Below, in pieces: positions 4,900-24,000 of a stretch of DNA of 24,000 nt; position 1 is the first letter of the stretch; the number at the start of each line of letters is the position of its first letter. The notes beneath the pieces are model-generated. The model saw only the letters and a program-made list of their open reading frames with translations, was not told the origin of the DNA and did not search any database. Origin of the DNA: Spirochaetia bacterium (GTDB lineage: Bacteria; Spirochaetota; Spirochaetia; CADAEX01); NCBI GenBank assembly GCA_017649605.1, contig JAGCGL010000062.1, positions 1-24,000 of the forward strand. The letters run 5' to 3'. Position numbers and translations under genes: made by a program.

Positions 4900-5414
4900 G
4901 CACACTGTTTATAAATGCCTGTATAAGGCCAGAATCCAGAACTCTTAAACTGGCAAAGGAACTCCTTTCCAAGCTGGAGAAGGAGACCGGAACACCTGCA
5001 GAAATTCTTAACCTGGAAGATGCAGACTTAAAGCCACTCAGCAACTCTGATATCGCCAGACGGGACAGAGCTTTGGCAGCCGGGGACTTCAGTGATCCTT
5101 TCTTTAAGTATGCAAAACAGTTTGCAGAAGCAGATATCATAGTTATAGCTGCCCCCTACTGGGACCTTTCCTTCCCTGCTCTGGTAAAGCTTTACTTCGA
5201 GGCTACATCAGTATGCGGCATCACATTCCGCTACACACCGGAGGGCTATCCTCAGGGGCTTTGCAAGGCAAAGAAGTTCTACTACGTGACTACTTCCGGC
5301 GGATTCATAGGAGACCTTGACTTCGGCTTCCAGTATGCAAAAGCCTTGACTACTAAACTTTATGGTATTCCAGATGTTGAGTGCATCAGAAAAGAGGGGC
5401 TGGATATTAAATGA
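4896..5414 (+). CDS. flavodoxin-like-fold FMN-dependent NAD(P)H oxidoreductase (AzoR/AcpD family)
   Basis: The 172-aa product is collinear with AzoR/AcpD: 'ADIIVIAAPYWDLSFPALVKLYFEATSVCGITFRYTPEG' and 'KKFYYVTTSGG'. ATGA overlaps occur at both ends (4896-4899 and 5411-5414). Confidence 0.8.
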   Translation: MSTLFINACIRPESRTLKLAKELLSKLEKETGTPAEILNLEDADLKPLSNSDIARRDRALAAGDFSDPFFKYAKQFAEADIIVIAAPYWDLSFPALVKLYFEATSVCGITFRYTPEGYPQGLCKAKKFYYVTTSGGFIGDLDFGFQYAKALTTKLYGIPDVECIRKEGLDIK

Positions 5415-6553
5415 CTTTTGATTTTAAAGTCAAAACACCTTGCTACATCATCGACACCGATATTCTTGCCGAGAATTTCAGGAATATAAAGAAAAAGGCC
5501 GATGGCGCCGGGCTTTCTCTTCTGATGGCGATGAAAGGGTTTCCCCTTCCAAAGGCATTTCCGTTTATCAAGCCTTTTGTGGATGGCATCTCCGCATCAG
5601 GGCTTTTTGAGGCAAAGCTTGGAAGCGACATGGGAAAGGAAGTGCATATCCACACCCCTGCTTACAAAGCAGAAGATGCTGAAGAAATCGCCTCTATCTG
5701 TTCCCACATTGTCCTGAATTCTCCACAGCAGGCCTCCATTTTCAGCCAGGCAGGCTCTAGGAAGAATCAATTTGCCCTGCGTCTTAATCCCCAGGTCAAT
5801 GCAGTAAAAGAGGCGGTCTACAATCCATGCGGCTCTTATTCACGCTTCGGGCTTACAAAGAACGCACTTGCAGAGGTAAAGCTTGACATCATGAATCGTA
5901 TCTCAGGCTTCCATATCCATGCCCTCTGCGGCAATTCTTCCCAGGATTTCAACAATCTGATCTCTGCGGTCATAGAAAAGTTTGCAGACTATTTACCATC
6001 TGTCTCTTGGATAAACTTAGGGGGCGGGCAGGCCTTTACAGAAGATGATTTTGACTTTGCCGATTTTCAGGAGAACCTGGATATTCTGCATACAAAATAT
6101 CATTTAAAGACCTATATTGAACCCTGTGAATATCTGGTAATGGAATCAGGTTTCCTGGCCGTTACAGTTCTGGATATTGTGCACAACGAAAAAGATATTG
6201 CAATTCTTGATACATCTCTTTCCTGCCATGCCCTTGATGTCCTTAAAAATTATTACCAGCTTCCTGTAGTCTTCCCAGAAGAGTGCAGCGGCAGAACGGA
6301 GCAGAAAACCTACAGCTACCTGCTTGCCGGAAACAGCTGCCTTGCAGGGGATGTATTCGGCGAATACACCTTTTCTGCCCCGCTGAAGCCTGGCGACAGA
6401 ATCATCTTCGGCGACATGGGCTCCTATTCCTTTGCACAGCAAAATTATTTTAATGGAATCAACTTCCCCGACATTGCTTTTTACAGTAGAATGTCTGGGA
6501 TAAAGCCCGTTAAAAGCTACACTTATGCAGAATACGAGAACATCTATGACTGA
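5411..6553 (+). CDS. nspC: carboxynorspermidine/carboxyspermidine decarboxylase-like PLP enzyme
   Basis: The 380-aa product is collinear with Vibrio-type NspC: 'TPCYIID', PLP-Lys region 'LLMAMKGF', 'DGISASGLFEAKLG', 'RLNPQVN', 'YSRFG', 'INLGGG', 'YIEPCEY', 'AGNSCLAGDVFG', 'YFNG'. Confidence 0.8.
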   Translation: MTFDFKVKTPCYIIDTDILAENFRNIKKKADGAGLSLLMAMKGFPLPKAFPFIKPFVDGISASGLFEAKLGSDMGKEVHIHTPAYKAEDAEEIASICSHIVLNSPQQASIFSQAGSRKNQFALRLNPQVNAVKEAVYNPCGSYSRFGLTKNALAEVKLDIMNRISGFHIHALCGNSSQDFNNLISAVIEKFADYLPSVSWINLGGGQAFTEDDFDFADFQENLDILHTKYHLKTYIEPCEYLVMESGFLAVTVLDIVHNEKDIAILDTSLSCHALDVLKNYYQLPVVFPEECSGRTEQKTYSYLLAGNSCLAGDVFGEYTFSAPLKPGDRIIFGDMGSYSFAQQNYFNGINFPDIAFYSRMSGIKPVKSYTYAEYENIYD

Positions 6554-7346
6554 GAAAGAAATAATTGAGAAAATGGTCGATGAATTTGTATGCGACCTTG
6601 GCTGCCCCTGCAACTGCTGTCTGGAATCGGCTGGCGGAATTATGCTTGACGGGGAATATGAAAAATATAAGAAATATGATGGAAAAAAACTTGTTGATGG
6701 CACTGTTTTCAACCTAAAGGAAATGGTTGAAGAAACAGAGGACGGGCTCCGGTTCAAGCAGGACAAAAATGGTGTCTGCATTCTTGTTAAGGACGGCAGG
6801 TGTCTTTTTCAATCAACTTTCGGCAGGAACGTACTCCATTATGAATGCCGGGAATATCCTAGGTGGACAATGCATTATAAAAGTCATGTGGAAAAAATGC
6901 TGTCTCCGGTATGTCCACATGTCACAGAGCTTTTCCTTAAGGACAATCTCTATTTCTGGGATTACATGACACAGGTGATTGAACCTGATCCAGATAATCT
7001 GTTTGAGGAAAGAAGACAGATTATTATGGTTTTGCGGGATGAAAACACAGCCCTGTCAGATGCCCTGGCCCTTCTTTGTTCCAGATACGGAATTGACCAC
7101 ACTTGTTCAGCCGGCATCTCCCTTTCCAAGGAAATCGAGGATATTTTGCGTCATCAGCTTGCCTGCACATTCTTCTGCGAGCTGCTCCAGAAGGGATATG
7201 ACAGAGAATATTTTGAATATACTGTTCCTTACTGTCTGAGCTCTGGTATTAAAATATATGATTATCTATGTGACATCGAGAATCTTAACCGCAACAATAT
7301 TGCGGTTCATTTTAACAAGGCCTGCTATAATGCCATACGGAAATGA
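6546..7346 (+). CDS. cysteine-cluster protein, YkgJ/CxxCxxCC (FliB-like) family
   Basis: There is an N-terminal Cys knot 'CDLGCPCNCC', then 'NGVCILVKDGRCLFQ' and 'HYECREYPR'. This mirrors the family pattern CxxCxxCC ... G-C-x-FL..dG-C-x-IY..RP..CR.FP. I prefer the start at ATG 6546 (8-nt overlap, ATGACTGA, with the nspC stop). An upstream ATG at 6525 is the alternative. Confidence 0.6.
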   Translation: MTEKEIIEKMVDEFVCDLGCPCNCCLESAGGIMLDGEYEKYKKYDGKKLVDGTVFNLKEMVEETEDGLRFKQDKNGVCILVKDGRCLFQSTFGRNVLHYECREYPRWTMHYKSHVEKMLSPVCPHVTELFLKDNLYFWDYMTQVIEPDPDNLFEERRQIIMVLRDENTALSDALALLCSRYGIDHTCSAGISLSKEIEDILRHQLACTFFCELLQKGYDREYFEYTVPYCLSSGIKIYDYLCDIENLNRNNIAVHFNKACYNAIRK

Positions 7347-7358
7347 TATGGGGAATCT

Positions 7359-7991
7359 ATGCTGACATTCAGAGCCGCCAGAAAAGAAGAACAGAAAGAA
7401 ATCTGCGAACTTTTTACAGATGCCTACATGGACTATGATTTTTTCATACCTCTCGAGAATAACCTTGACTGGCGGTGGAAATTTATCTATGAAGTTCATA
7501 TGCTCTCCATAAAGACAAACATAAAAAGAAGGCAGCTTTTTGTCGGGGAAGACGATGGACAGATTATTATGGGGTTTATATTTCAGGATCCTGAGAAAAA
7601 ACAACCTGGATTTCTTGATTACCTCTTTGCCGGTGCTGTACCTGCAATAATTAGGTCTGGGTTAAGCAAAATACTTTTATGGAACTCTATGGATGAACAG
7701 AGCGAAAAACCAATAAAACTTCTTATGAAAAATGAACCACATATATACTATCTTCAGGATCTTGCCGTCAGAAAGGATTCCCAGAAAAAGGGATACGGAA
7801 GCCGTGTCTTTAAGGACTTTCTGATTCCTTATATAAAAAATAAGGGCGGCGGCACCCTTGCCCTGATCACAAACTCCAAAAAAAATTACAATTTTTACTG
7901 CAGGCGAGGTTTTACCTGCTTTGAATCCAGCCAGTTTATGTGCAGAAACACTGCAATTGATAACTGGTGCTTTAGAATGGAAATCGTCTGA
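7359..7991 (+). CDS. GNAT-family N-acetyltransferase
   Basis: Motif A 'YYLQDLAVRKDSQKKGYGSRVFKDFL' (Q/RxxGxG/A acetyl-CoA loop) and motif B-like 'LITNSKKNYNFYCRRGF'. An SD-like GGGGA lies at 7350-7354. The acceptor is unknown. Confidence 0.75.
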   Translation: MLTFRAARKEEQKEICELFTDAYMDYDFFIPLENNLDWRWKFIYEVHMLSIKTNIKRRQLFVGEDDGQIIMGFIFQDPEKKQPGFLDYLFAGAVPAIIRSGLSKILLWNSMDEQSEKPIKLLMKNEPHIYYLQDLAVRKDSQKKGYGSRVFKDFLIPYIKNKGGGTLALITNSKKNYNFYCRRGFTCFESSQFMCRNTAIDNWCFRMEIV

Positions 7992-8030
7992 CTTATTGCT
8001 TTAACAGTAATATTAATATATATATAATAT

Positions 8031-9170
8031 ATGACTGACTATGAAATTGAGATGGAGCTGGACAGGGCAGTGCAAGATTGCCAGAAGCAAGGGTATCCTT
8101 CTGTAAATCTTTCTACCTGGAATTCAGGCTCTGAATATAAAGAACAGCTTAAAAACATCCTCAAACTTGACAACGGAATTGATATTTTTGACTATCAATA
8201 TTACTTCCAGGAGGATGCCAGGAAGAAATTGGCCTATAAACTGGGTTTCTCTGCCGAAGATTGCAAAAAAGAATTCTTTCATGCTCTTACACAAAGCACC
8301 CTTTCTATCGCGACTATTGCAGTTCTTCTTTCAAGAATGGAAACAAAGCTTGGGATAATCTCTCCCTACTATTTTTCTGTTCCAGACTGCTGTGATGACT
8401 TAAAGCTGCCATACACGATTTTTGCCGATTTTATGGAAGATATAAATGAATCTTTTGACGTAGATTTACTCCTGAAATCCGACTGTACTGCCTTTTGGTT
8501 CACTTCTCCGCTCAACTCCTGCAGCATCTATTTCGGCCAGCGGGTAACAGAAAGTATTCAAAAACTGCTGGATGCCGGGAAGCTGGTAATTTTAGACGAA
8601 TCCCTGTGCATAAACGGCAGGGAACTTTCCCGTACATTCGGCATACAGGAAAATCTTATTTATATCTACAGCCCCCATAAAGCACTTGGTATCCAGGGCA
8701 TAAAGTTCTCGGTCCTGGTAGCACACAAAAAATTCTATGATGATATTGACAGCCTGGGCGACAGTTATGGTGGCTCACTCAACTACTCATGCCAGCAGGG
8801 GTATTTTCATTTTATCTCGCCTAATTTTGATGAATGTATGACTGTGTACAACAAGTTCTGGCAGAAAAATCTTTCTGCTGCCAGACAGGTTCTGGCTTCT
8901 TACAGTTTTGCCTCTCTGTCAGCGGAGACTTATGGCCATTACGCTATGATTTTCATCGACAGCACACTTGATGACAGATGCTTTGTCGACGCCATGAAGC
9001 AGCTGATGAGGGAAAAAGGCTATTTTGTCTATCCCGGCGTTATGCAATGCTTTGACCCAAAACATCACTTCTGTTTCCGAATAAATCTGCTTTTAAACCG
9101 GACTGATCTAGAGCATGGGCTTAAAGCTGTCCTGGATTTTTTCAAAGATAACATAGGAGCAGACAGATGA
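8031..9170 (+). CDS. divergent fold-type I PLP-dependent enzyme (aminotransferase class I/II-like)
   Basis: 'IYIYSPHKALGIQGIKFSVLV' resembles the S-x-x-K PLP-lysine strand followed by G-x-(R/K)-x-(G/S). 'LVILDESLC' is an Asp strand. 'WFTSPLNSCSIYF' sits where NPxNPTG normally is. The C-terminus has 'FCFRINL'. This is a family-level call only. No SD precedes the ATG; the upstream 39 nt are almost pure A/T. Confidence 0.55.
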   Translation: MTDYEIEMELDRAVQDCQKQGYPSVNLSTWNSGSEYKEQLKNILKLDNGIDIFDYQYYFQEDARKKLAYKLGFSAEDCKKEFFHALTQSTLSIATIAVLLSRMETKLGIISPYYFSVPDCCDDLKLPYTIFADFMEDINESFDVDLLLKSDCTAFWFTSPLNSCSIYFGQRVTESIQKLLDAGKLVILDESLCINGRELSRTFGIQENLIYIYSPHKALGIQGIKFSVLVAHKKFYDDIDSLGDSYGGSLNYSCQQGYFHFISPNFDECMTVYNKFWQKNLSAARQVLASYSFASLSAETYGHYAMIFIDSTLDDRCFVDAMKQLMREKGYFVYPGVMQCFDPKHHFCFRINLLLNRTDLEHGLKAVLDFFKDNIGADR

Positions 9171-12118
9171 TTCCATTTCTACAACGATTATCAGAAGTTT
9201 CAGTAAAATATCCAAGCCGTCCGGCAGCCGTTGACCGTGATGGCGAGCGCTCAACAACCTATTCCCAGCTAAATGATTATTCAAGCCGGGTCGCTTCCTA
9301 CTTGCGGGCACTGGGCTTAAAAAAAGAAGACCTGATTGCCATAAAACTGGAAAAGTCCATGGAATATGTGGCGGTGCAACTGGGCGTGATGAAATGCGGC
9401 TGTGCCTTTGTACCGATTTCCGATGCAATGGGCCAGGAGCGTATAGAGCATGTGCTTGCCGACTCTGGCGCCAAATTTGTTTTTGATGCTGCACACTGGG
9501 ATAAGGCCATGGACTGCCACCCCCTGCCGGAAGCAGACTGGGCAGAAAGCGATGAGCACGACCTTGCGTTTATTATCTATACATCGGGAAGCACAGGGAT
9601 GCCCAAAGGCGTTGTGGAAGAATACGGAGCTTACCGCTTTATGGCAAAGGGCACTGCCGAGGAAGTGCTGGAGCCTTATACCATGCAGGATGACGCAATC
9701 CGCTTTGCAAATGTGGCACCGGTAACATTCTCTGCATTTACCATTATCAATGTGTGCATGGTCTGCGAAGCTTGGACTAACTATATGGTCTCGGGCGAGG
9801 TTGTCAGAAATCCGCTGCTTTATATGCAGTTCCTTAAAGAACACAGAATAGATGCAATGTTCCTGACTGCATCGCTGGTAAAGCCCCTTTCTGACAACGA
9901 GAGCCTTTCGCCAAAAGTTATATATCTTTCTTCCGAGCGGGTAAGCGATGTATACAGCTCAAGATTTGCAGTTTTGAACATCTACTGCAACTCGGAGCTT
10001 ATGTCCACCGCCTGCAATTTTGTTATCGATAAACCCTACTCAAACACGCCCATCGGTGCACACTGTTCCTATACAGACATGGTGCTTCTTGATAACGACT
10101 CCGTTTCTGAGAAAGAAGGGGAAATCTGCCTCCATCTTCCATTTTTCCGCGGCTACCTTAACCAGAAAGAAGAGAATGAGAAAGCTTTTGTTGTAATCGA
10201 TGGAAAAAAATTCTTCCGCACCAGAGACTTTGCCCGCCGGGGAGAAGACGGACTTCTGTATGTCCTGGGCCGGGCAGACGACATGGTTAAAATAAACGGA
10301 AACCGTGTAGAGCCGGCCGAAGTGGAGACAGCCCTTAAAAAAGTGCTGGAAACTAAGGTTGTGGCAGTAAAGGCATTTGAGAACAATGGCAAGTATTATC
10401 TCTGCGCCTATTATCAGAAAGAAGATACTGTTCCCGTAGAAGAAATCCGTGCTTCCCTAAAAACACTGCTTCCTGACTATATGATTCCATCCTATTATGT
10501 CCGCTTTGAGAAAATGCCCCTCAACACAAACGGGAAAATTGACAAAAAATCACTGGCACCACCAGCTTTTGAAGAGAATCATGCCGAATATGTGCCGCCG
10601 GAAACCGAGACACAGAAAATCCTCTGCTCTGCGGCCGAGGGGATTCTGGGAGATCTTTACAATGTGGGGAAAATAGGAATTGATGATGACCTGATACTGC
10701 TGGGCGGTGACAGTATATGCGCCATGAATCTGATAGCAGAATGCAAGACCCTTCCGTTGTCCGTTCCGCTGATTATTGGGAAGCGTACTGTGCGTGCCAT
10801 TGCAGAGGCGGTAGAGGCTCTAAAGGCCCAGAATTCCCATCCCGGACAGAAGATACATCTTACAAAAGCACCACTTAATGACATACAGCTGATTATGCTC
10901 CAGGACGATATCGCCTTCCCTGTAACAACAATGTTCAATCTGACGTATATAATCACTCTGCAGGACAATGTGGATTTAGGCCAGTTCGCCAAAGCTGTAA
11001 GAAAAGCTGTCTCTGCTCATCCTGCTCTTTTAAGCGTCATAGAGAAAGAGGGCAACATATACTATCTGCGTTACGAGCCCAGCTTTGACAAGGAAACTCC
11101 TGTGGAGACTATGAGCAATGACGAGCTAGCCGAGACCTTAAAACACTTTATAAGGCCCTTCCTGCTTGATGGAAGCCCCCTTTTCCGCACCCGGATTATC
11201 AGAACACCGGGGCAGAACGTTTTCCTTTTTGATGCATATCATGTCATTGCCGACGGAAATTCCATGGAAATTCTTATGGACGATATTGCCCGCAGTCTTC
11301 GTGGCGATTCCATTGGTAAAGACAAAATATTCCAGGAATTGCAGAAAGAGGCAGACTTTAAGAGCACCGGAACCTATTCCCAGGACAATGCATATTTCAA
11401 GGACCGATACGACAAGGACGGCTGGCATACACGACCACAGCCCGACTATGACACAGATAAGAATATCCTTGACACCATTACAGGCGATTTCCAGTTCTCC
11501 AAAGAGCGTGTTGCCGACCTATGCCGGAACTATGGGCTGGGGAAAAATGAATTCTATGCTGCGGCGGCTGCCCTTGCCATATCTATGTATAACAAGGTCC
11601 AGAATGTAATGCTGTCCTGGGTATGGAACGGCCGGGAAGCAGCCGCGGAACAGCGTTCTGTCGGGGTCTTCTACAAGGACTATCCTATTGCCTTTACTAT
11701 TGGAGATAAGACCAAGCTGAAGGATCTGCTTATGCAGGCAAAGGAGCAGGCGCTGGAGGGCATTGCCCATGGAAGCCTTTCCTATTTCGACAGACCAGGT
11801 CTTTACCAGGGGCATGATGTGTTCTGTCTTCTGTATCAGGGCGATATGTACAACTGCGACAAATACACCAGTTTTATGAAAAAGGCTGCCGAGTCCTTGG
11901 AGACAGATGAGTTCCCATGCGCCTGCGGCAATTCGCCGGAGCTTGAGATACTTGACAGCAGAACGGAATTCGGTTTTATCCTTGATTATAACGCAGCAGA
12001 GTACAAGAGTGAAAGCATGGAAAAGTTCCTGGGTCTCTTCACCAATTCCTGTGAAATGCTTTTAAAAGTAGAGGAAAATCCTGATATTGCAGTCGGAGAT
12101 ATAAAAAACTATGAGTAG
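9167..12118 (+). CDS. single-module non-ribosomal peptide synthetase, A-T-C
   Basis: 983 aa. A domain: A3 'YTSGSTGMPKG' (nt 9578-9610), A5-like 'NIYCNSE', A6 'GEICLHLPFFRGY', A7/A8 'FRTRDFARRGEDGLLYVLGRADDMVKINGNRVEPAEVE', A10 'NGKIDKKSL'. T domain: 'LLGGDSICAMNL' (Ser516, nt 10712-10714). C domain: C1 'APLNDIQLIML', C3 'AYHVIADGNSM' (His692, nt 11240-11242). There is no TE or R domain. SD AGGAG lies at 9155-9159, and an ATGA overlap links it to the upstream gene. Confidence 0.9.
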   Translation: MIPFLQRLSEVSVKYPSRPAAVDRDGERSTTYSQLNDYSSRVASYLRALGLKKEDLIAIKLEKSMEYVAVQLGVMKCGCAFVPISDAMGQERIEHVLADSGAKFVFDAAHWDKAMDCHPLPEADWAESDEHDLAFIIYTSGSTGMPKGVVEEYGAYRFMAKGTAEEVLEPYTMQDDAIRFANVAPVTFSAFTIINVCMVCEAWTNYMVSGEVVRNPLLYMQFLKEHRIDAMFLTASLVKPLSDNESLSPKVIYLSSERVSDVYSSRFAVLNIYCNSELMSTACNFVIDKPYSNTPIGAHCSYTDMVLLDNDSVSEKEGEICLHLPFFRGYLNQKEENEKAFVVIDGKKFFRTRDFARRGEDGLLYVLGRADDMVKINGNRVEPAEVETALKKVLETKVVAVKAFENNGKYYLCAYYQKEDTVPVEEIRASLKTLLPDYMIPSYYVRFEKMPLNTNGKIDKKSLAPPAFEENHAEYVPPETETQKILCSAAEGILGDLYNVGKIGIDDDLILLGGDSICAMNLIAECKTLPLSVPLIIGKRTVRAIAEAVEALKAQNSHPGQKIHLTKAPLNDIQLIMLQDDIAFPVTTMFNLTYIITLQDNVDLGQFAKAVRKAVSAHPALLSVIEKEGNIYYLRYEPSFDKETPVETMSNDELAETLKHFIRPFLLDGSPLFRTRIIRTPGQNVFLFDAYHVIADGNSMEILMDDIARSLRGDSIGKDKIFQELQKEADFKSTGTYSQDNAYFKDRYDKDGWHTRPQPDYDTDKNILDTITGDFQFSKERVADLCRNYGLGKNEFYAAAAALAISMYNKVQNVMLSWVWNGREAAAEQRSVGVFYKDYPIAFTIGDKTKLKDLLMQAKEQALEGIAHGSLSYFDRPGLYQGHDVFCLLYQGDMYNCDKYTSFMKKAAESLETDEFPCACGNSPELEILDSRTEFGFILDYNAAEYKSESMEKFLGLFTNSCEMLLKVEENPDIAVGDIKNYE

Positions 12119-13832
12119 TCAGTCAACATTCTTAAAAAGAAAATTTTTCTCGTTGCTGATACCTGGAACAATAAGCATGGTTGTAGTAACGCTGCTCCTG
12201 CTTTCGGATTCTGTGATTGCCGGCCTTATGCTGGGCCAAGATGCAGTTGCAGCCATAAGCCTTGTTACCCCGGCTTATAGCTTGGCTGCTTTTTTTGCCG
12301 GTATGATCGCAAGCGGCGTTCCCATTCTCTACTCAAAAGCTATGGGAGAGTTCAACAAAAAAGCAGCAGACCGCTATTTTGCGCTGGGATTTACATCAGC
12401 TATTGCCATAGGAATCATCCTGACCCTCGCCGCTTCTGTATTCGGAGACACCTACCTGCGTTCCTATAAAGCTTCCGAAGCAGTATTCAATCAAGCACAC
12501 GACTACTTTTTCTGGTATAAGCTAACCATTCTGCTCAGCGCGCTGAACATGCTTATCTCCGAGATGATACTGACCGACGGCGACGAGGCCCTGAGCCTTG
12601 TCTCAAGTTTAGTGCAGGTTGTGGGAAACATTGTACTTTCTGTTATCCTTGCCCACTTCTTCGGCATATCGGGAATTGCTTTCGCCTCTTTTGCAGGAAC
12701 TGCTGCTGCTCTTATTATTGCATCTGTCCATTTCCTCAGAAAGGCCAACTCCCTCAAAATAGGTTTTTTCTTTTCTTTCAAAGAGCTTCTTCCTGTAGTA
12801 AAATACAGCATAATCGATGCAGGCTCCTATCTTTTTCTTGCCTGCTTTACTGTTGGAATAGAGCATTTTATCATAGTAACCTATGGCCAAGAGATGCTGA
12901 TCCTGGCCTCTGTATTCCTGCTTGTAAAAGAGTTCCAGATGGTGTTTGACGGCATTGGAGAAGCTGTTACCCCGATTATGAATATTTATGTAGGAGAAGA
13001 ATCCTGTCCGGCAATCCGGAAATGCTACCGGCTTGCAAAAAAGGCAGCAATCATCGAAGGGTTTATTGTAACACTGGTTATATTAGCATTCTCGCCCTTC
13101 ATTGTAAAAATATATGGCATCGCAGACCCGGATATTGTAGGATTTGCCGACAAAGGGGCAAAAATTATTGCCCTGGGGCTTGTTCATATAAGTCTTTTGT
13201 ATTTGCTTACATCATACTACATTATAATCGACCGGATTCTGCTGGGCTTTGTCATCAGCGGCCTTCGGGATATGATTGTGGCTCTGCCTCTGTGTATGCT
13301 GTTTGGAAAGCTTTTCGGCATATACGGAATGTTTGCAGGCGGTGCCCTGGCTCCTATTGCAGCCTATTATCTTTCACTTCTTTTCGTGCGCATAAAATAC
13401 GGCAGAGAAAATACACCTCTTCTCCTTGCAGATCGGGAAAAATCTTTAAAAGCTGCTTTCTACGAGTTTACCATCACCCCAGAAGCAACTATCGCAGTTC
13501 AGAAGAACATAGGAGACTTCCTGCGGGCAAATAATGTGGACAGAAAGCTGATTGCAAAAACAGAGCTGCTTATCGAGGAGCTCTATATGCTGGTGTACGA
13601 GCGGAACAATAAAAAGCCTACAGTCTGTGCAGAATGTACAGCCCTTATCAGGGACGACGGCATTCAGATCATCGAAAAAGACGATGGCCTTTTGTTCAAC
13701 CTGACAGATGAGGATTCTCTGCCAAGCTCGCTGGGAGCTTTCGTGGTTGCAAGCTATATGGAAAAAATGCATGGAAACAAGATGTACCTTACCACAATGA
13801 GCTACAACCGCAATACTTTCAAGGTAAAATAA
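12111..13832 (+). CDS. MATE-family transporter fused to a C-terminal SpoIIAB/RsbW-like (GHKL, HATPase_c_2-like) domain
   Basis: 573 aa. Residues ~10-440 are polytopic, with a MATE-type N-terminus ('LLIPGTISMVVVTLLLLSDSVIAGLMLGQDAVAAISLVTP...GVPILYSKAMG'). Residues ~447-573 (nt ~13449-13829) are soluble and collinear by eye with anti-sigma kinases: 'ELLIEELYMLVYE', 'IQIIEKDDGLLFN', 'SLGAFVVASYMEKM'. The gene overlaps the NRPS stop by 8 nt. Confidence 0.8.
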   Translation: MSSQSTFLKRKFFSLLIPGTISMVVVTLLLLSDSVIAGLMLGQDAVAAISLVTPAYSLAAFFAGMIASGVPILYSKAMGEFNKKAADRYFALGFTSAIAIGIILTLAASVFGDTYLRSYKASEAVFNQAHDYFFWYKLTILLSALNMLISEMILTDGDEALSLVSSLVQVVGNIVLSVILAHFFGISGIAFASFAGTAAALIIASVHFLRKANSLKIGFFFSFKELLPVVKYSIIDAGSYLFLACFTVGIEHFIIVTYGQEMLILASVFLLVKEFQMVFDGIGEAVTPIMNIYVGEESCPAIRKCYRLAKKAAIIEGFIVTLVILAFSPFIVKIYGIADPDIVGFADKGAKIIALGLVHISLLYLLTSYYIIIDRILLGFVISGLRDMIVALPLCMLFGKLFGIYGMFAGGALAPIAAYYLSLLFVRIKYGRENTPLLLADREKSLKAAFYEFTITPEATIAVQKNIGDFLRANNVDRKLIAKTELLIEELYMLVYERNNKKPTVCAECTALIRDDGIQIIEKDDGLLFNLTDEDSLPSSLGAFVVASYMEKMHGNKMYLTTMSYNRNTFKVK

Positions 13833-20589: not shown

Positions 20590-20619
20590 ATTATAGAAAC
20601 AAGGAGGCTTTTTTTTCAA
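20590..20619 (-). promoter_or_regulatory. candidate sigma70-type promoter for the DUF1846 / activase-fusion / PDT operon
   Basis: On the minus strand, TTGAAA (complement of 20614-19) is followed by an 18-nt spacer and then TATAAT (complement of 20590-95), about 25 nt upstream of the DUF1846 ATG. It overlaps the tatD stop codon. Pattern match only. Confidence 0.35.
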
Positions 20620-21305
20620 GGGGAAAATAGTGTTTTAAGATTATTTTCAAGATAACTTTTTACTGTTTCGGGAGTTATATTTTTTATCCCTGCGGCAAAG
20701 TTATACAGTTCCTCCAAAGTCTCCACATAACCGGCCGACGGAACCTCTGTAAAATCGGTCTCAAGGAATATGCGTTCCAGAGGGAGCTGACGGAGTACCT
20801 CGGCCTGTTTTTCTATCCGCTGGACCGATGGTGAGAAGGAGAACCATGTGTTGCGCTTTAATAGCGTTTTTGCGGTTTCCATGGAACCGGAGTAGGAGTG
20901 CATTAAAAGGGGCAGGTCGTCCGGAACTTCTGAGAGGATTTCCATGAAAGGGCCCCATGCGTGGAGACAGTGGACAGCAACCGGCACCTTATACTGCTGG
21001 GCCAACCAGAGATGGAAAGCGAAAAAGCCCTTCTGATCCTCAAAATCGGGGTTTTTGTCTGTCTTGTCCAGTCCTGTCTCCCCTATGCCGAACTTAAGGC
21101 CGGCACCCTTCTTCTGTTTGATAAACTGTCCCAAAGCCATAAGTTCAATTTTTGAACAACTTTTTGCATGCCATGGGTGGATGCCGTAGAAAGGGAAGAT
21201 ATCAGGGCTGTCCGGAATGTGATCCCAGTCGTCGGCTGTCACAGAATTCCACAGGGCAGTAACCCCGGGGGCAGGCTGACAGTGGCAGTGGGCATCAATC
21301 AGCAT
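20616..21305 (-). CDS. TatD-family metal-dependent hydrolase/DNase
   Basis: 'MLIDAHCHC' (HxH), 'FYGIHPW', 'GIGETGLD', 'QKGFFAFHLWLAQQYKVPVAVHC', 'LMHSYSGS', 'IFLETDF'. At 229 aa it is slightly short for the family. Confidence 0.85.
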   Translation of the reverse strand: MLIDAHCHCQPAPGVTALWNSVTADDWDHIPDSPDIFPFYGIHPWHAKSCSKIELMALGQFIKQKKGAGLKFGIGETGLDKTDKNPDFEDQKGFFAFHLWLAQQYKVPVAVHCLHAWGPFMEILSEVPDDLPLLMHSYSGSMETAKTLLKRNTWFSFSPSVQRIEKQAEVLRQLPLERIFLETDFTEVPSAGYVETLEELYNFAAGIKNITPETVKSYLENNLKTLFSP

Positions 21306-21307
21306 AT

Positions 21308-21317
21308 ATTATTTCTT
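21308..21317. repeat. left copy of the 10-nt direct repeat ATTATTTCTT flanking the AT-rich island
   Basis: It matches 22638-22647 exactly, read directly from the sequence. In AT-rich DNA a 10-mer match can occur by chance. Confidence 0.3.
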
Positions 21318-21322
21318 TATTT

Positions 21323-22195
21323 CTAATTTTTATTATATCCCAAAGACAAAGAACATAGTTTTCTTTTCCATAATTTTTCTCTATCTATTGCTTCATTTTC
21401 TGATATTTTCAAAGGCAATAATTCGAGAATTATCCAATGAAAATATTTCATGGCATATAATGGATCTTTATCAATTTCTTTTTTTAGAAGCACATCATCC
21501 CCGTGTCCTGATTCTGCATAATCTTTCCAGCGTCCCCAAATACCTTCTTTATTGTAGGTGGATCCGATATATTGCTTCCCATTATTTGTATCCTGAATCA
21601 AATAAATGCAATTACAACAATCAAGACGTCTTTTCCAATCCGCTATTTCTTTATCAAAAATTGTTTTTAATTGTCGATATGTAAGCAAAACATCATTATA
21701 GCTTATAAAAAGAGGAATATCGTTTTCTATTAGACCTCTGTCAATTCTTATCACGGCCTTTTCATTTTCATACCACTGATGCCACGAAATAGCATTTTTA
21801 CCCCAATCGACAACAACTCGCTCTTTTAATATTTCAAAACCAGGTACTTCTTCAAAATCAAATATATGATGATCTTCAAATTTACCAACTACACCATTAT
21901 TTTTATAAACTCCAATAAACCTTGAATCTGTACCATCTTCTCCAATAAATGCAACAATATATTCAACATTTATAAAATTAGCTGATCGTTGTTCATTCTG
22001 ATATTTCAAAAATCTTTCATATTCATTTCGATATAAATTATATAGTGAACCTGTATATGGTTCACCCTGTATCTTCCGCTCATCCATGGGTCTTGAATCT
22101 TTATGACGGACTAGTTTTATCTTCTTAGCATTATCAAATTCTAAGTTTCGTCCTTTAAGAAGCTGCTGAATTGTTGCAATTATTTCAGTATTCAT
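21323..22195 (-). CDS. GIY-YIG nuclease-domain protein with uncharacterised ~195-aa N-terminal domain
   Basis: C-terminal residues 196-290 (nt 21326-21610) carry 'CIY'(196-198)-x10-'YIG'(209-211), Arg222 ('GRW'), His231 ('SGHG'), Glu in 'AIDREKLWKRKL', and a terminal 'GYNKN'. The N-terminal domain ('KLVRHKD', 'EYIVAFIGEDGTDSRFIGVYK', 'VVDWGKNAISWHQW') has no family I can name. SD GGAGG precedes the ATG at 22195. Confidence 0.75.
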   Translation of the reverse strand: MNTEIIATIQQLLKGRNLEFDNAKKIKLVRHKDSRPMDERKIQGEPYTGSLYNLYRNEYERFLKYQNEQRSANFINVEYIVAFIGEDGTDSRFIGVYKNNGVVGKFEDHHIFDFEEVPGFEILKERVVVDWGKNAISWHQWYENEKAVIRIDRGLIENDIPLFISYNDVLLTYRQLKTIFDKEIADWKRRLDCCNCIYLIQDTNNGKQYIGSTYNKEGIWGRWKDYAESGHGDDVLLKKEIDKDPLYAMKYFHWIILELLPLKISENEAIDREKLWKRKLCSLSLGYNKN

Positions 22196-22259
22196 TTATT
22201 TCCTCCAAGGTTTATAATTCCGCCGCTTGTTTTAATGACATGGTAGCATATTTTTATTC

Positions 22260-22277
22260 ATAATGTGTCCACATTAT
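22260..22277. repeat. perfect 8-2-8 palindrome ATAATGTG-tc-CACATTAT
   Basis: Read directly. It abuts the stop codon of the small ORF and lies 65-82 nt upstream of the GIY-YIG start. The 2-nt spacer argues against a full hairpin and for a dimeric protein-binding site. Its function is unproven. Confidence 0.5.
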
Positions 22278-22588
22278 CAGTCTATATCCTCAACACTTTC
22301 TTCCAAAGGTTCTTTGCGTGCCTCAAGGAGTGATTCTCTCATCCTTGGTATTGAACAGAGGTACAGGGTTTCCTGCTCCGAATTCCAATCTCCACTTTTT
22401 TTCAATAACTCTGGTTGGATCCGCCCATCTGCCATAAAATCAGGAGTAAACATAGAAAGGCCTTTTTCGAATTCTGACCAATCAACGAGTTTATTTTCTT
22501 TAATCTGCTGAATTCCAATCTTTAAATCTTTGGACAAGCGTTTATCAGCAAGTATTTCTAATGTTTCTTCATAATCTTTATAATCCAT
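22277..22588 (-). CDS. small acidic protein (103 aa) built from antitoxin-like C-terminal motifs
   Basis: I prefer ATG 22588 ('MDYKDYEE...', preceded by GGAAG). The track's 22618 start is a TTG. The Phd/YefM-type motif occurs twice: 'YEETLEILADKRLSKDLKIGIQQIKENKLVDW' and 'EQETLYLCSIPRMRESLLEARKE'. There is also a VapB/VagC-like 'TPDFMADGRIQPE'. No N-terminal DNA-binding fold is evident. Confidence 0.45.
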   Translation of the reverse strand: MDYKDYEETLEILADKRLSKDLKIGIQQIKENKLVDWSEFEKGLSMFTPDFMADGRIQPELLKKSGDWNSEQETLYLCSIPRMRESLLEARKEPLEESVEDID

Positions 22589-22630
22589 GTTAACTTCCCA
22601 TTTATTAGTATATATCAATTATTTTAAGTG

Positions 22631-22639
22631 TGCTATAAT
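22631..22639 (+). promoter_or_regulatory. candidate extended -10 promoter (TGnTATAAT) for murD
   Basis: 'TGCTATAAT' at 22631-22639, GGAGG SD at 22648-22652, ATG at 22660. There is no good -35, which extended -10 promoters tolerate. Pattern match only. Confidence 0.35.
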
Positions 22640-22647
22640 TATTTCTT
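22638..22647. repeat. right copy of the 10-nt direct repeat ATTATTTCTT flanking the AT-rich island
   Basis: It matches 21308-21317 exactly and overlaps the putative murD -10/leader. Confidence 0.3.
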
Positions 22648-22659
22648 GGAGGGGGACAG

Positions 22660-24000
22660 ATGGAAGACTACAGGAACAAGAAAATCACCATCATGGGGCT
22701 GGGGCTCAATGGCGGTGGGATGGCTGCGGCCAAGTTCTTCGCATCGAAAGGGGCTCTGGTGACTGTCACCGACCTGCGTTCAGAGCAGATTCTCAAGCCT
22801 TCCATGGACATGCTCTCCGGCTACGATATCCGGTATGTGCTTGAGAAGCACGATTTCGCCGATTTTGAGAACGCCGACATAGTAATCAAGAACCCTGCTG
22901 TTCCACTCACTTCCCCCTACCTGGCAAAAGCAAAAAGGATCGAGACCGACATCTCCATATTCCTCTCGGAATTCAAGGGAGATGTGATTGCTGTCACCGG
23001 AAGCAAGGGGAAATCCACCACTGTCTCTGCCATCTACCACGGGATGAAAAAGCTTAATGAGGACACCTTCCTCGGGGGCAATATCACTATCTCGCCGCTC
23101 TCTTTTCTGGAAGAGCTTACTGACAAGTCGCTGGTGATCCTGGAACTCTCATCCTGGCAGCTGGCTGATATCCGGGGCAAGGGGCTTCTTAAGCCGGTAG
23201 TATCGGTTATCACAAATATAATGCATGAGCATCAGAACCGGTACAATTCGGTGCAGGAATATGCTGATGACAAGAAGGTGATCTACCAGAGCCAGACAAA
23301 GGAGCAGTACACGCTCTGCAATTATGACGATGAATATGGGAAACAGTTCTTCGACGAGACCCCGGCCCACCCGATCTGGTTCTCTGGCGCCGATATGGGA
23401 AAAGATGAGCAAGTATGGCTCGATGGAAGAAAAGGCTTTATAAAACTGAGCGGGAAAACCGAGCAGATACTGCCTGAGAAGCTCCTTATTCCCGGGGAAC
23501 ACAATAGGAAGAATATGCTGATCGCAGCTGCTACAATGTATCTCTATGGCTTCAAGGGCACTGATATAATGAACGCTCTGGCCGACTTCAAGGGAATTCC
23601 CCACCGGCTTGAGTTTATCCGCGAATATAACGGCAGGAAGTTCTACAACGACACCACAGCCACTATACCACAGGCCTGCCTTGCCGCAGTGAAGAGCTTT
23701 GATGAGCCGGTTGTCCTTATCGCGGGTGGCACTGACAAGAACCTCCTCTTCGACCTGCTGCCCGAGATTGCAAAGGCAGCCAAGAAGATGTACCTCCTCA
23801 AGGGAAGCGCCACAGACAAGATGATTGCTGAACTGGATGCCCACAGTTGCCCTTACAACGGTCCATACAGCACCCTTGGAGAGGCTTTTGATGCAGCATA
23901 CGCCGGATCTACCGCAGGAGACGTGATTCTTTTCTCTCCAGGAGCCACATCGTTTGAGCTTTTCAAGAACGAGTTTGACCGCGGCAATTCTTTTAAGGAA
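22660..24000 (+). CDS. murD: UDP-N-acetylmuramoyl-L-alanine--D-glutamate ligase, 3'-truncated by window end
   Basis: My own translation of frame +1 from ATG 22660 (447 codons, no stop inside the window, hence absent from the track): 'KITIMGLGLNGGGMAAAKFFASKGALVTVTD', P-loop 'IAVTGSKGKSTT', 'LSSWQL', 'ITNIMHEHQNRY', 'GEHNRKN', 'GIPHRLE', 'NDTTATIP', 'IAGGTDK', 'SPGATSFELFKNEFDRGNSF'. Confidence 0.9.
   Translation, partial: MEDYRNKKITIMGLGLNGGGMAAAKFFASKGALVTVTDLRSEQILKPSMDMLSGYDIRYVLEKHDFADFENADIVIKNPAVPLTSPYLAKAKRIETDISIFLSEFKGDVIAVTGSKGKSTTVSAIYHGMKKLNEDTFLGGNITISPLSFLEELTDKSLVILELSSWQLADIRGKGLLKPVVSVITNIMHEHQNRYNSVQEYADDKKVIYQSQTKEQYTLCNYDDEYGKQFFDETPAHPIWFSGADMGKDEQVWLDGRKGFIKLSGKTEQILPEKLLIPGEHNRKNMLIAAATMYLYGFKGTDIMNALADFKGIPHRLEFIREYNGRKFYNDTTATIPQACLAAVKSFDEPVVLIAGGTDKNLLFDLLPEIAKAAKKMYLLKGSATDKMIAELDAHSCPYNGPYSTLGEAFDAAYAGSTAGDVILFSPGATSFELFKNEFDRGNSFKE

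Follow-up and report, generated by a model that had tools for sequence, protein, structure and literature searches.

Uzume, which PADLOC and DefenseFinder both catalogue, is an anti-phage system reportedly from the set of Millman et al. 2022, and the experimental picture of it used here comes from secondary sources and from PADLOC. A single gene, with a GIY-YIG domain, is listed for it (10.1101/2024.10.26.620412; PMC13223576). A second point of comparison is PD-T4-3/CMoRE, a single-protein GIY-YIG type IV restriction enzyme in which one polypeptide joins the nuclease to a second, target-sensing domain and acts directly on phage DNA (PMC12923530). Here we analysed a stretch of 24,000 nucleotides (nt) from an uncultured rumen spirochaete (the window; positions 1 to 24,000 of contig JAGCGL010000062.1, assembly GCA_017649605.1), in which an AT-rich island of about 1.35 kb between the core genes tatD and murD holds two open reading frames (ORFs), one of them a full-length match to UzuA, the protein of Uzume. 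The segment is probably a small, horizontally acquired defence cassette with uzuA, situated in a tatD/murD recombination hotspot of rumen Spirochaetia. The window copy shares with Uzume the full-length UzuA profile match, the size of about 290 amino acids (aa), the C-terminal GIY-YIG domain, and an occurrence of the family on plasmids and in neighbourhoods rich in defence and toxin–antitoxin (TA) genes; it differs in standing behind an antitoxin-derived ORF in a two-gene mini-island, in belonging to a near-identical block common to several species, and in being known here from sequence alone. The features on which the argument turns are as follows.

20616–21305, minus strand: tatD, gene of a TatD-family hydrolase, core flank (Pfam TatD_DNase, E 4.9e-37)
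21306–22659, no strand: AT-rich mini-island occupying the entire tatD/murD intergenic space, delimited by GC content and homology breaks
21323–22195, minus strand: uzuA, 290 aa, the single gene of Uzume (match to the PADLOC UzuA model)
21326–21613, minus strand: GIY-YIG nuclease domain at the UzuA C-terminus, residues ~195–290 (Pfam, Foldseek, alignment to I-TevI)
21626–22195, minus strand: UzuA N-terminal domain, residues 1–190, mixed alpha/beta (model of the domain alone)
22277–22588, minus strand: small ORF of 103 aa with ATG start, an acidic, antitoxin-derived mosaic (alignment A1)
22660–24000, plus strand: murD, core flank (Pfam MurD-like_N, Mur_ligase_M and Mur_ligase_C), continuing past the window end

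Identity and domains of the island nuclease

The 290-aa protein matched the PADLOC UzuA model PDLC03973 over its full length (E 1.4e-78; residues 7–290 on model positions 3–278 of 278) as well as a second PADLOC model, PDLC03974 (E 8e-47), and on these profile matches it is UzuA, the sole gene of the Uzume anti-phage system. The initial annotation, made from the sequence alone, had seen a candidate defence-like module here but could not place the gene pair in any named system; the first of these statements is borne out by the PADLOC match, and the second is superseded by it. The complete GIY-YIG domain that had been read at the C-terminus is real: it scored 24.3 bits against the Pfam cut-off of 22.6, and it gave a profile match with E 3.6e-6. 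Residues Y198, Y209, R222, H231, E273 and N288 align to I-TevI and are invariant or nearly so in 22 homologues (alignment A2). In an AlphaFold2 (AF2) model of UzuA (22 homologues; mean predicted local distance difference test score, pLDDT, 87.5), Foldseek superposed the C-terminal 95 residues on the I-TevI catalytic domain (1mk0/1ln0) with a target-normalised template-modelling (TM) score of 0.64–0.66 and 30–32% identity, the best structural and sequence match for this domain. The N-terminal domain modelled alone gave a pLDDT of 81.5 and a predicted TM score (pTM) of 0.79, and 50 of its columns are invariant across 15 homologues; for this half there was no significant PDB match, the resemblances to PD-T4-3/CMoRE, the THYN1 EVE domain and YTH readers being weak and non-significant.

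In the reading that we favour, UzuA would act alone: its N-terminal ~190 aa would recognise a feature of invading DNA or an infection cue, and the I-TevI-like GIY-YIG domain would then cut DNA. The mode of action of CMoRE may serve as a working analogy for this, with the differences that the nuclease is N-terminal in CMoRE and C-terminal in UzuA, that UzuA has a CIY...YIG and not a GIYxY-YIG motif, and that beyond the GIY-YIG core the two show no significant sequence or fold match (E 0.15–0.7, TM 0.2–0.28).

UzuA relatives and their neighbourhoods

Homologues of UzuA are numerous (642 in the protein database and more than 1,000 in a wider count), and the more than 1,000 found elsewhere have no small ORF. 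They occupy many unrelated chromosomal and plasmid loci, and the family is found in defence- and TA-rich neighbourhoods. The upstream neighbour varies by clade or is absent, and the plasmid-borne copies stand alone, both of which support the autonomy of UzuA. A phage-borne origin was considered and rejected, there being three weak matches in 50,697 phage records and one in 2.9 million viral contigs (IMG/VR).

The neighbourhoods of three sets of relatives deserve description. A clade 71–72% identical to the window's UzuA (L059–L066) lies between cstA/DUF8052 and aspS, with an acidic ORF of 94–100 aa upstream and with a PvuRts1I-like SRA type IV restriction gene and Phd-ParE or DUF4258-MqsA pairs as neighbours, and by its sequence this locus is a separate small defence/TA island. 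At gut metagenome loci with UzuA 53–59% identical to the window's (L090–L156; the clade includes copies from metagenome-assembled genomes (MAGs) of Bacteroidales), a conserved acidic protein of 240–364 aa, with no Pfam match save a weak one to YopX (E 8e-4), is encoded 9–27 nt upstream of uzuA; the pair could be a recurrent two-gene arrangement, although many of these loci are redundant. Finally, a copy 80% identical to that of the window (L081, 192–1028) follows the gene of a microbial PARG/macro-domain protein (PF10021, E 5e-23) at a distance of 100 nt, a context unlike the one described here.

The tatD/murD site as a cargo-exchange hotspot

The 103-aa and 290-aa ORFs, separated by 81 nt, are the only genes of the island, as initially annotated, and both lie on the minus strand, which had not been stated; the flanks had likewise been named correctly. 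tatD and murD are transcribed divergently, and the island fills the whole gap between them. Its GC content is 32.0% compared to 48.4% for the remaining window (30.7% for uzuA, 37.5% for the small ORF, 49.0% for tatD and 50.9% for the part of murD present), and windows of 200 nt range from 24.5 to 42% within the island and from 47 to 55% outside. The GC drop reported initially is real and sharp, but it starts from flanks of about 49–51% and not of 57–58%. In all hosts examined uzuA is AT-rich (31–39% GC), and its low GC therefore characterises the family besides marking the gene as foreign.

The states of the site were found through a MurD search of one genome per species and through contigs encoding the exact proteins. 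Between tatD and murD, five related species (L026, L022, L023, L024 and L027) have an empty site with a spacer of 48–90 nt, and five distinct cargo types were found. The small ORF with the 290-aa UzuA occurs in the window lineage and in at least three others (B = L003, C = L005, and L159); a vapB gene with a PIN-domain vapC in L025 (PIN match E 1.8e-15); a small-ORF homologue with a 170-aa alpha/beta-hydrolase-like gene in type D (L013–20); a 73-aa small ORF with a 199-aa signal-peptide (exported) protein in L160; and a 315-aa protein, a methyltransferase-specificity fusion, a 68-aa small ORF and a 263-aa protein in type E (L069–72). This last protein is also UzuA (E 1.2e-58), only 30% identical to that of the window. 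As some relatives have nothing at this site and others a different cargo, tatD|murD of rumen/gut Spirochaetia is a cargo-exchange hotspot. The site states are interleaved on the DUF1846 tree, and types B (290-aa UzuA) and E (restriction-modification (RM)-like genes with the 263-aa protein) differ in cargo with DUF1846 genes 98.7% identical, so that they belong to one species.

The horizontal acquisition that had been proposed was upheld by the empty sites, and on these sequence comparisons the island is a true insertion. In the comparison with the closest empty site (L026, in which the DUF1846 gene is 95.5% identical to the window's) homology stops at 21314 and returns at 22638, the foreign DNA being 21315–22637; in the comparison with type D (L013) homology breaks at 21306 and 22625. 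Defence hotspots flanked by core genes share with this site the conserved flanks, the empty and variously filled states, and a cargo rich in defence and TA genes (here Uzume, the RM-like pair and vapBC), and they differ from it in that this site is very small (one or two genes per state), has an antitoxin remnant as the anchor on one side, and is documented from metagenome assemblies only.

Two of the alternative cargoes hold further genes. In type E, the 315-aa protein (no family match) and the N6-methyltransferase/specificity fusion (652–671 aa) are both encoded ahead of the 263-aa UzuA and the truncated small ORF, and by their sequences may form an unclassified RM-like pair. In the hydrolase-carrying lineage (L013, 2895–3080; also L017 and L019), an ORF of 61 aa without a family match overlaps the small-ORF homologue at the start of the latter and ends in a loosely antitoxin-tail-like C-terminus (...SERDIRKGKYRSASEVFSDLRRKL).

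The boundaries of the island had been noted to carry an exact 10-nt direct repeat, and both copies are present as described:

21308–21317, plus strand: left copy of ATTATTTCTT, exact, overlapping the end of homology to the empty site (21314)
22638–22647, plus strand: right copy of ATTATTTCTT, exact, overlapping the −10-like TATAAT of murD (22634–39) and lying just before the ribosome-binding site GGAGGGGG (22648–55)

As a scar of insertion, however, the repeat did not survive comparison, and a target-site duplication was rejected. The empty site of L026 already has both ATTAT(T/G)T motifs, 16 nt apart (ATTATTTT ... ATTATGTCT), so the repeat was not made by the insertion. The right 10-mer is not conserved in lineages B, C, L159 and L160: the murD-side copy in other lineages that carry the island is ATTATTTTTG, ATTAATTTCT or ATTATTTTTT, and the exact 10-mer occurs only in the window lineage. 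In a simulation, an exact 10-mer common to both 45-nt boundary zones was nominally unlikely by chance (P ~0.005–0.013), but a third exact copy of ATTATTTCTT lies at 6556–65 and the island contains other exact repeats of 10–12 nt. The repeat is at most AT-rich promoter-region sequence or microhomology.

Recent transfer and proposed recombination anchors

Comparison of the cargo between lineages delimited two further features:

21301–22342, no strand: recently swept block of 1,042 nt (17-nt spacer, uzuA, 81-nt spacer and the last 66 nt of the small ORF)
21306–21322, minus strand: 17-nt spacer from the uzuA stop to the tatD start (read from the sequence), with the last six uzuA codons the proposed downstream recombination anchor

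The swept block has zero to two mismatches in 1,042 nt (99.8–100% identity) compared to lineages B, C and L159, in which tatD, murD and the DUF1846 gene are only 78–87% identical to those of the window; the synonymous divergence (dS) is 0–0.006 for uzuA and 0.85–1.04 for DUF1846. With the block near-identical and its flanks this divergent, the uzuA block has, by its sequence, moved between species very recently. An assembly chimera is an unlikely source of the identical block, since the same site arrangements recur in independent assemblies (NCBI MAGs, JGI, ENA, Logan) and identity decays gradually, not at a k-mer join.

On the murD side, identity to other lineages falls stepwise within the small ORF, with breakpoints at ~22343 and ~22422; the latter is common to type E and L160 (the homology to L069 and L160 stops there). 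On the tatD side, the breakpoint falls in the last six nuclease codons and the 17-nt spacer, which are common even to both divergent UzuA alleles (the homology between the window and L069 extends from tatD through 21343, and types B and E part 18 nt before the nuclease gene end). No recombinase ORF, tRNA or non-coding RNA (Rfam) was found in or beside the island; the involvement of an integrase, a tRNA or a non-coding RNA was rejected, and the island differs from integrative mobile elements in lacking a recombinase gene, insertion-generated repeats and a tRNA. The initial remark that no recombinase is present and that the mobility mechanism is unclear was fair, and the data now point to recombination between conserved anchors. 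We infer from the breakpoints a replacement of cassettes by homologous recombination between two anchors, rather than by a dedicated recombinase. Exchange would follow DNA uptake and would need no recombinase, one crossover falling within the small ORF and the other in the last nuclease codons, the 17-nt spacer or the start of tatD.

Homing would produce a similar picture by another route: UzuA as a free-standing GIY-YIG homing endonuclease, one of the two explanations first suggested, would cut an empty or alternative tatD|murD allele and be copied in by repair. This would account for identical copies at one site in several species, and the presence/absence polymorphism at one precise site, the identity of the block across species and a decay on the small-ORF side that resembles a co-conversion tract all fit it, as does a catalytic domain closest to I-TevI and Seg-type phage endonucleases. 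We nevertheless regard homing as very improbable. The order of domains is reversed in UzuA, with the nuclease C-terminal, and NUMOD, helix-turn-helix (HTH) or zinc-finger DNA-binding modules were not detected in the protein; TIGR01453 (group I intron endonuclease) gave 24.4 bits against a cut-off of 56, and uzuA is not within an intron or a phage genome, the family being nearly absent from phages. On the tatD side co-conversion is entirely lacking, the same anchors flank cargo other than nucleases, and the relatives are spread over many unrelated loci and plasmids. Cassette exchange between anchors remains the reading that we prefer for the movement of the island.

A mosaic of antitoxin tails upstream of uzuA

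Antitoxin-module shuffling is a known evolutionary pattern. The small ORF (isoelectric point, pI, 4.5; 25 D/E and 15 K/R residues; a TTG at 22618 is a possible alternative start that would give 113 aa) consists of three segments:

22457–22588, minus strand: module 1, residues 1–44, C-terminal half of 90-aa Phd/YefM-type antitoxins with a ParE/RelE-like partner
22406–22456, minus strand: module 2, residues 45–61 (FTPDFMADGRIQP), C-terminal tail of AbrB/MazE-type VapB; holds the ~22422 breakpoint
22280–22405, minus strand: module 3, residues 62–103, C-terminal half of 80-aa YefM-type antitoxins with a YoeB partner

Compared to its 90-aa relatives (P0010–12; the gene partnered with P0010 is ParE_toxin-like), module 1 starts at the internal Met21 and has lost their beta-strand core; missing are the initial 20 residues and some 22 more from the interior. 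Module 2 gave a match to NCBIfam VapB (E 0.002, residues 33–61), and the VapB found at the same site in L025, partnered with a PIN protein, ends in the same tail (...FSDDFMADGRNQPEMQTREGL). Module 3 is 60–61% identical to P0007–9 and aligns to residues ~38–80 of these 80-aa relatives (the gene partnered with P0008 encodes a YoeB_toxin protein); Pfam PhdYeFM (PF02604) matched residues 67–93 at model positions 44–70 with 18.0 bits against a cut-off of 29.8. The antitoxin-type motifs first noticed in this ORF are real, but they are below the family thresholds. Alignment A1 shows, as far as homology can tell, an in-frame mosaic to which Phd, VapB and YefM each contribute the toxin-binding C-terminal half, and not a canonical antitoxin. 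Homology to type II antitoxins (Phd/YefM; VapB of the AbrB/MazE type) runs through these C-terminal halves; the small ORF differs from them in having three tails in tandem, no N-terminal dimerisation or DNA-binding domain in alignment A1, and no cognate toxin (RelE/ParE, YoeB, Doc or VapC) beside it, the downstream gene being uzuA.

Relatives of the small ORF are rare. A word index of 5.8 billion proteins yielded 12. When 1.84 billion representatives were searched exhaustively there were 55 matches, and none outside its own cluster covers the full length; P0143, P0150 and P0176 match residues 3–44 only, and the long-protein matches P0133, P0148 and P0178 were discarded as spurious (FG-GAP-like or TPR repeats). 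The ORF is confined to this hotspot, where it precedes four unrelated cargoes. Truncated forms of 66–73 aa exist (68–73 aa in type E and L160), and in types D and E the stop codon overlaps or directly adjoins the following start, as is seen where translation is coupled (the nuclease gene of type E begins 1 nt past the stop). The frame is open in at least five lineages, and the ratio of non-synonymous to synonymous change (dN/dS) is 0.20–0.24, a 4- to 5-fold enrichment of synonymous changes (Fisher p 5e-4 and 3e-5).

That a pair of this kind forms a two-gene TA-like or abortive-infection module, in which the acidic small protein binds and restrains UzuA until infection frees it, was the first of the initial explanations. 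The antitoxin-typical upstream position, the antitoxin-derived sequence, the low pI and the purifying selection all speak for such a partner, and the small ORF precedes both the 290-aa and the 263-aa UzuA allele in this genus. In the L059–L066 clade, moreover, the acidic ORF upstream of uzuA (pI 4.2; gap of 38–44 nt) is unrelated to the small ORF, and in CMoRE the active site is inhibited by an acidic loop without which the enzyme becomes toxic (PMC12923530), which is an analogy only. Set against this, the same small ORF also precedes the 170-aa hydrolase-like gene and the 199-aa exported protein, it is truncated in type E and L160, and its modules derive from binders of ParE/RelE, VapC and YoeB and not of GIY-YIG nucleases. 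Nearly all UzuA genes are without it, Uzume is catalogued as a single gene, and PADLOC has no model for the small ORF. A role as general UzuA partner was rejected on the rarity of its homologues and on the neighbourhood survey. We therefore judge the two-gene module unlikely: the small ORF, confined to the hotspot and placed before unrelated cargoes, with UzuA elsewhere doing without it, looks like a relic or anchor and not like the cognate antitoxin of UzuA, and its function is most likely not to neutralise this nuclease.

At the other extreme, the small ORF could be a pure fossil, a decaying pseudogene without protein function, only uzuA being of consequence. The loss of the N-terminal domain, the internal deletions relative to the source antitoxins, the truncated forms and the scores below every family threshold would be expected of such a remnant. 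They are outweighed by the open frames, the enrichment of synonymous changes and the coupling-like arrangement in types D and E, and we think this explanation rather improbable; being under purifying selection, the small ORF probably keeps some function. A third and equally doubtful proposal gives that function a shape: the small ORF might be a working "poly-antitoxin", whose three toxin-binding tails (Phd for ParE/RelE, VapB for VapC, YefM for YoeB), without a DNA-binding domain, would serve as a neutraliser or decoy in trans for toxins encoded elsewhere. If true, it could shield the cell from incoming addiction modules or couple the TA state to the expression of the downstream defence cargo, and its position at the head of a cassette-exchange site would be functional, not historical.

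In our preferred reading of the cassette, the mosaic would be a record of successive TA cassettes that were once at the site, and the small ORF would now be a constant upstream homology anchor for the exchange of the cargo behind it, and probably also its leader or promoter region.

Expression signals and neighbouring genes

Two features between the small ORF and uzuA bear on expression:

22196–22276, minus strand: 81-nt spacer from the small ORF to uzuA, with a GGAGGA ribosome-binding site 7 nt 5' of the uzuA ATG
22260–22277, no strand: perfect palindrome ATAATGTG-tc-CACATTAT, adjoining the small-ORF stop codon (read from the sequence)

The promoter and terminator scan called no minus-strand promoter-like or terminator-like site in the 81-nt spacer; its counts did not exceed those in shuffled sequence, and no operon signals are claimed from it. 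The palindrome is possibly an operator, its conservation being uninformative as it lies in the near-identical swept block. In the 17-nt spacer between uzuA and tatD no terminator-like site was seen, and, as this spacer has no room for a terminator or a promoter, tatD is probably co-transcribed with the island. With the island present, tatD (and probably the DUF1846 gene) would rely on transcription running through it.

The 5' end of tatD (21250–21305, the first 18 codons) is the most divergent part of the flanks, with about 50% nucleotide identity to lineages B and C and a 3-nt indel, and two N-terminal variants of TatD, HCHCQPAPG and HTHI(V/L/I)PD, exist among the relatives. Further upstream in the window, positions 5411–13832 (GC 38–47%) encode a protein like a nonribosomal peptide synthetase (983 aa, AMP-binding and Condensation domains), a MatE efflux protein, a GNAT acetyltransferase, a pyridoxal phosphate-dependent decarboxylase and two ORFs without a Pfam match, and could represent a small cluster for a secondary metabolite or for modification of the cell surface.

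Discussion

Several points weigh against the defence cassette as we describe it. The mechanism of Uzume is described as unknown in the sources consulted (10.1101/2024.10.26.620412, PMC13223576 and PMC12926258). The UzuA N-terminal domain found nothing significant in a search of the PDB (best E 0.05, TM < 0.3), and with such a fold "sensor" is a presumed role and only a label. The acidic ORF of the L059–L066 clade and the occurrence of the small ORF before two divergent UzuA alleles would fit an inhibitor, and the purifying selection shows, on the codon comparisons, that the small ORF is more than a fossil. The boundary on the tatD side is extremely abrupt, and the tatD sequence that adjoins it in lineages B and C is only about 50% identical over 55 nt; such an edge sits uneasily with simple homologous recombination, unless a cassette with the ~37-nt downstream anchor was already present in the recipient. 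All sequences compared are metagenome assemblies.

With these points taken into account, a horizontally acquired uzuA cassette in an exchange hotspot is still the likely explanation of the segment. Current ideas are not overturned by it, as defence genes that cluster with TA modules and turn over at hotspots are the expected pattern. A nuclease that was thought unplaceable is now assigned to a named defence system, Uzume, and the protein encoded ahead of it is an unusual triple antitoxin tail that is still under selection. The hotspot is tiny and has no mobile element, and its crossover points can be read at nucleotide resolution. One uzuA allele has spread almost unchanged through at least four rumen spirochaete lineages, which implies strong recent selection or very efficient exchange.

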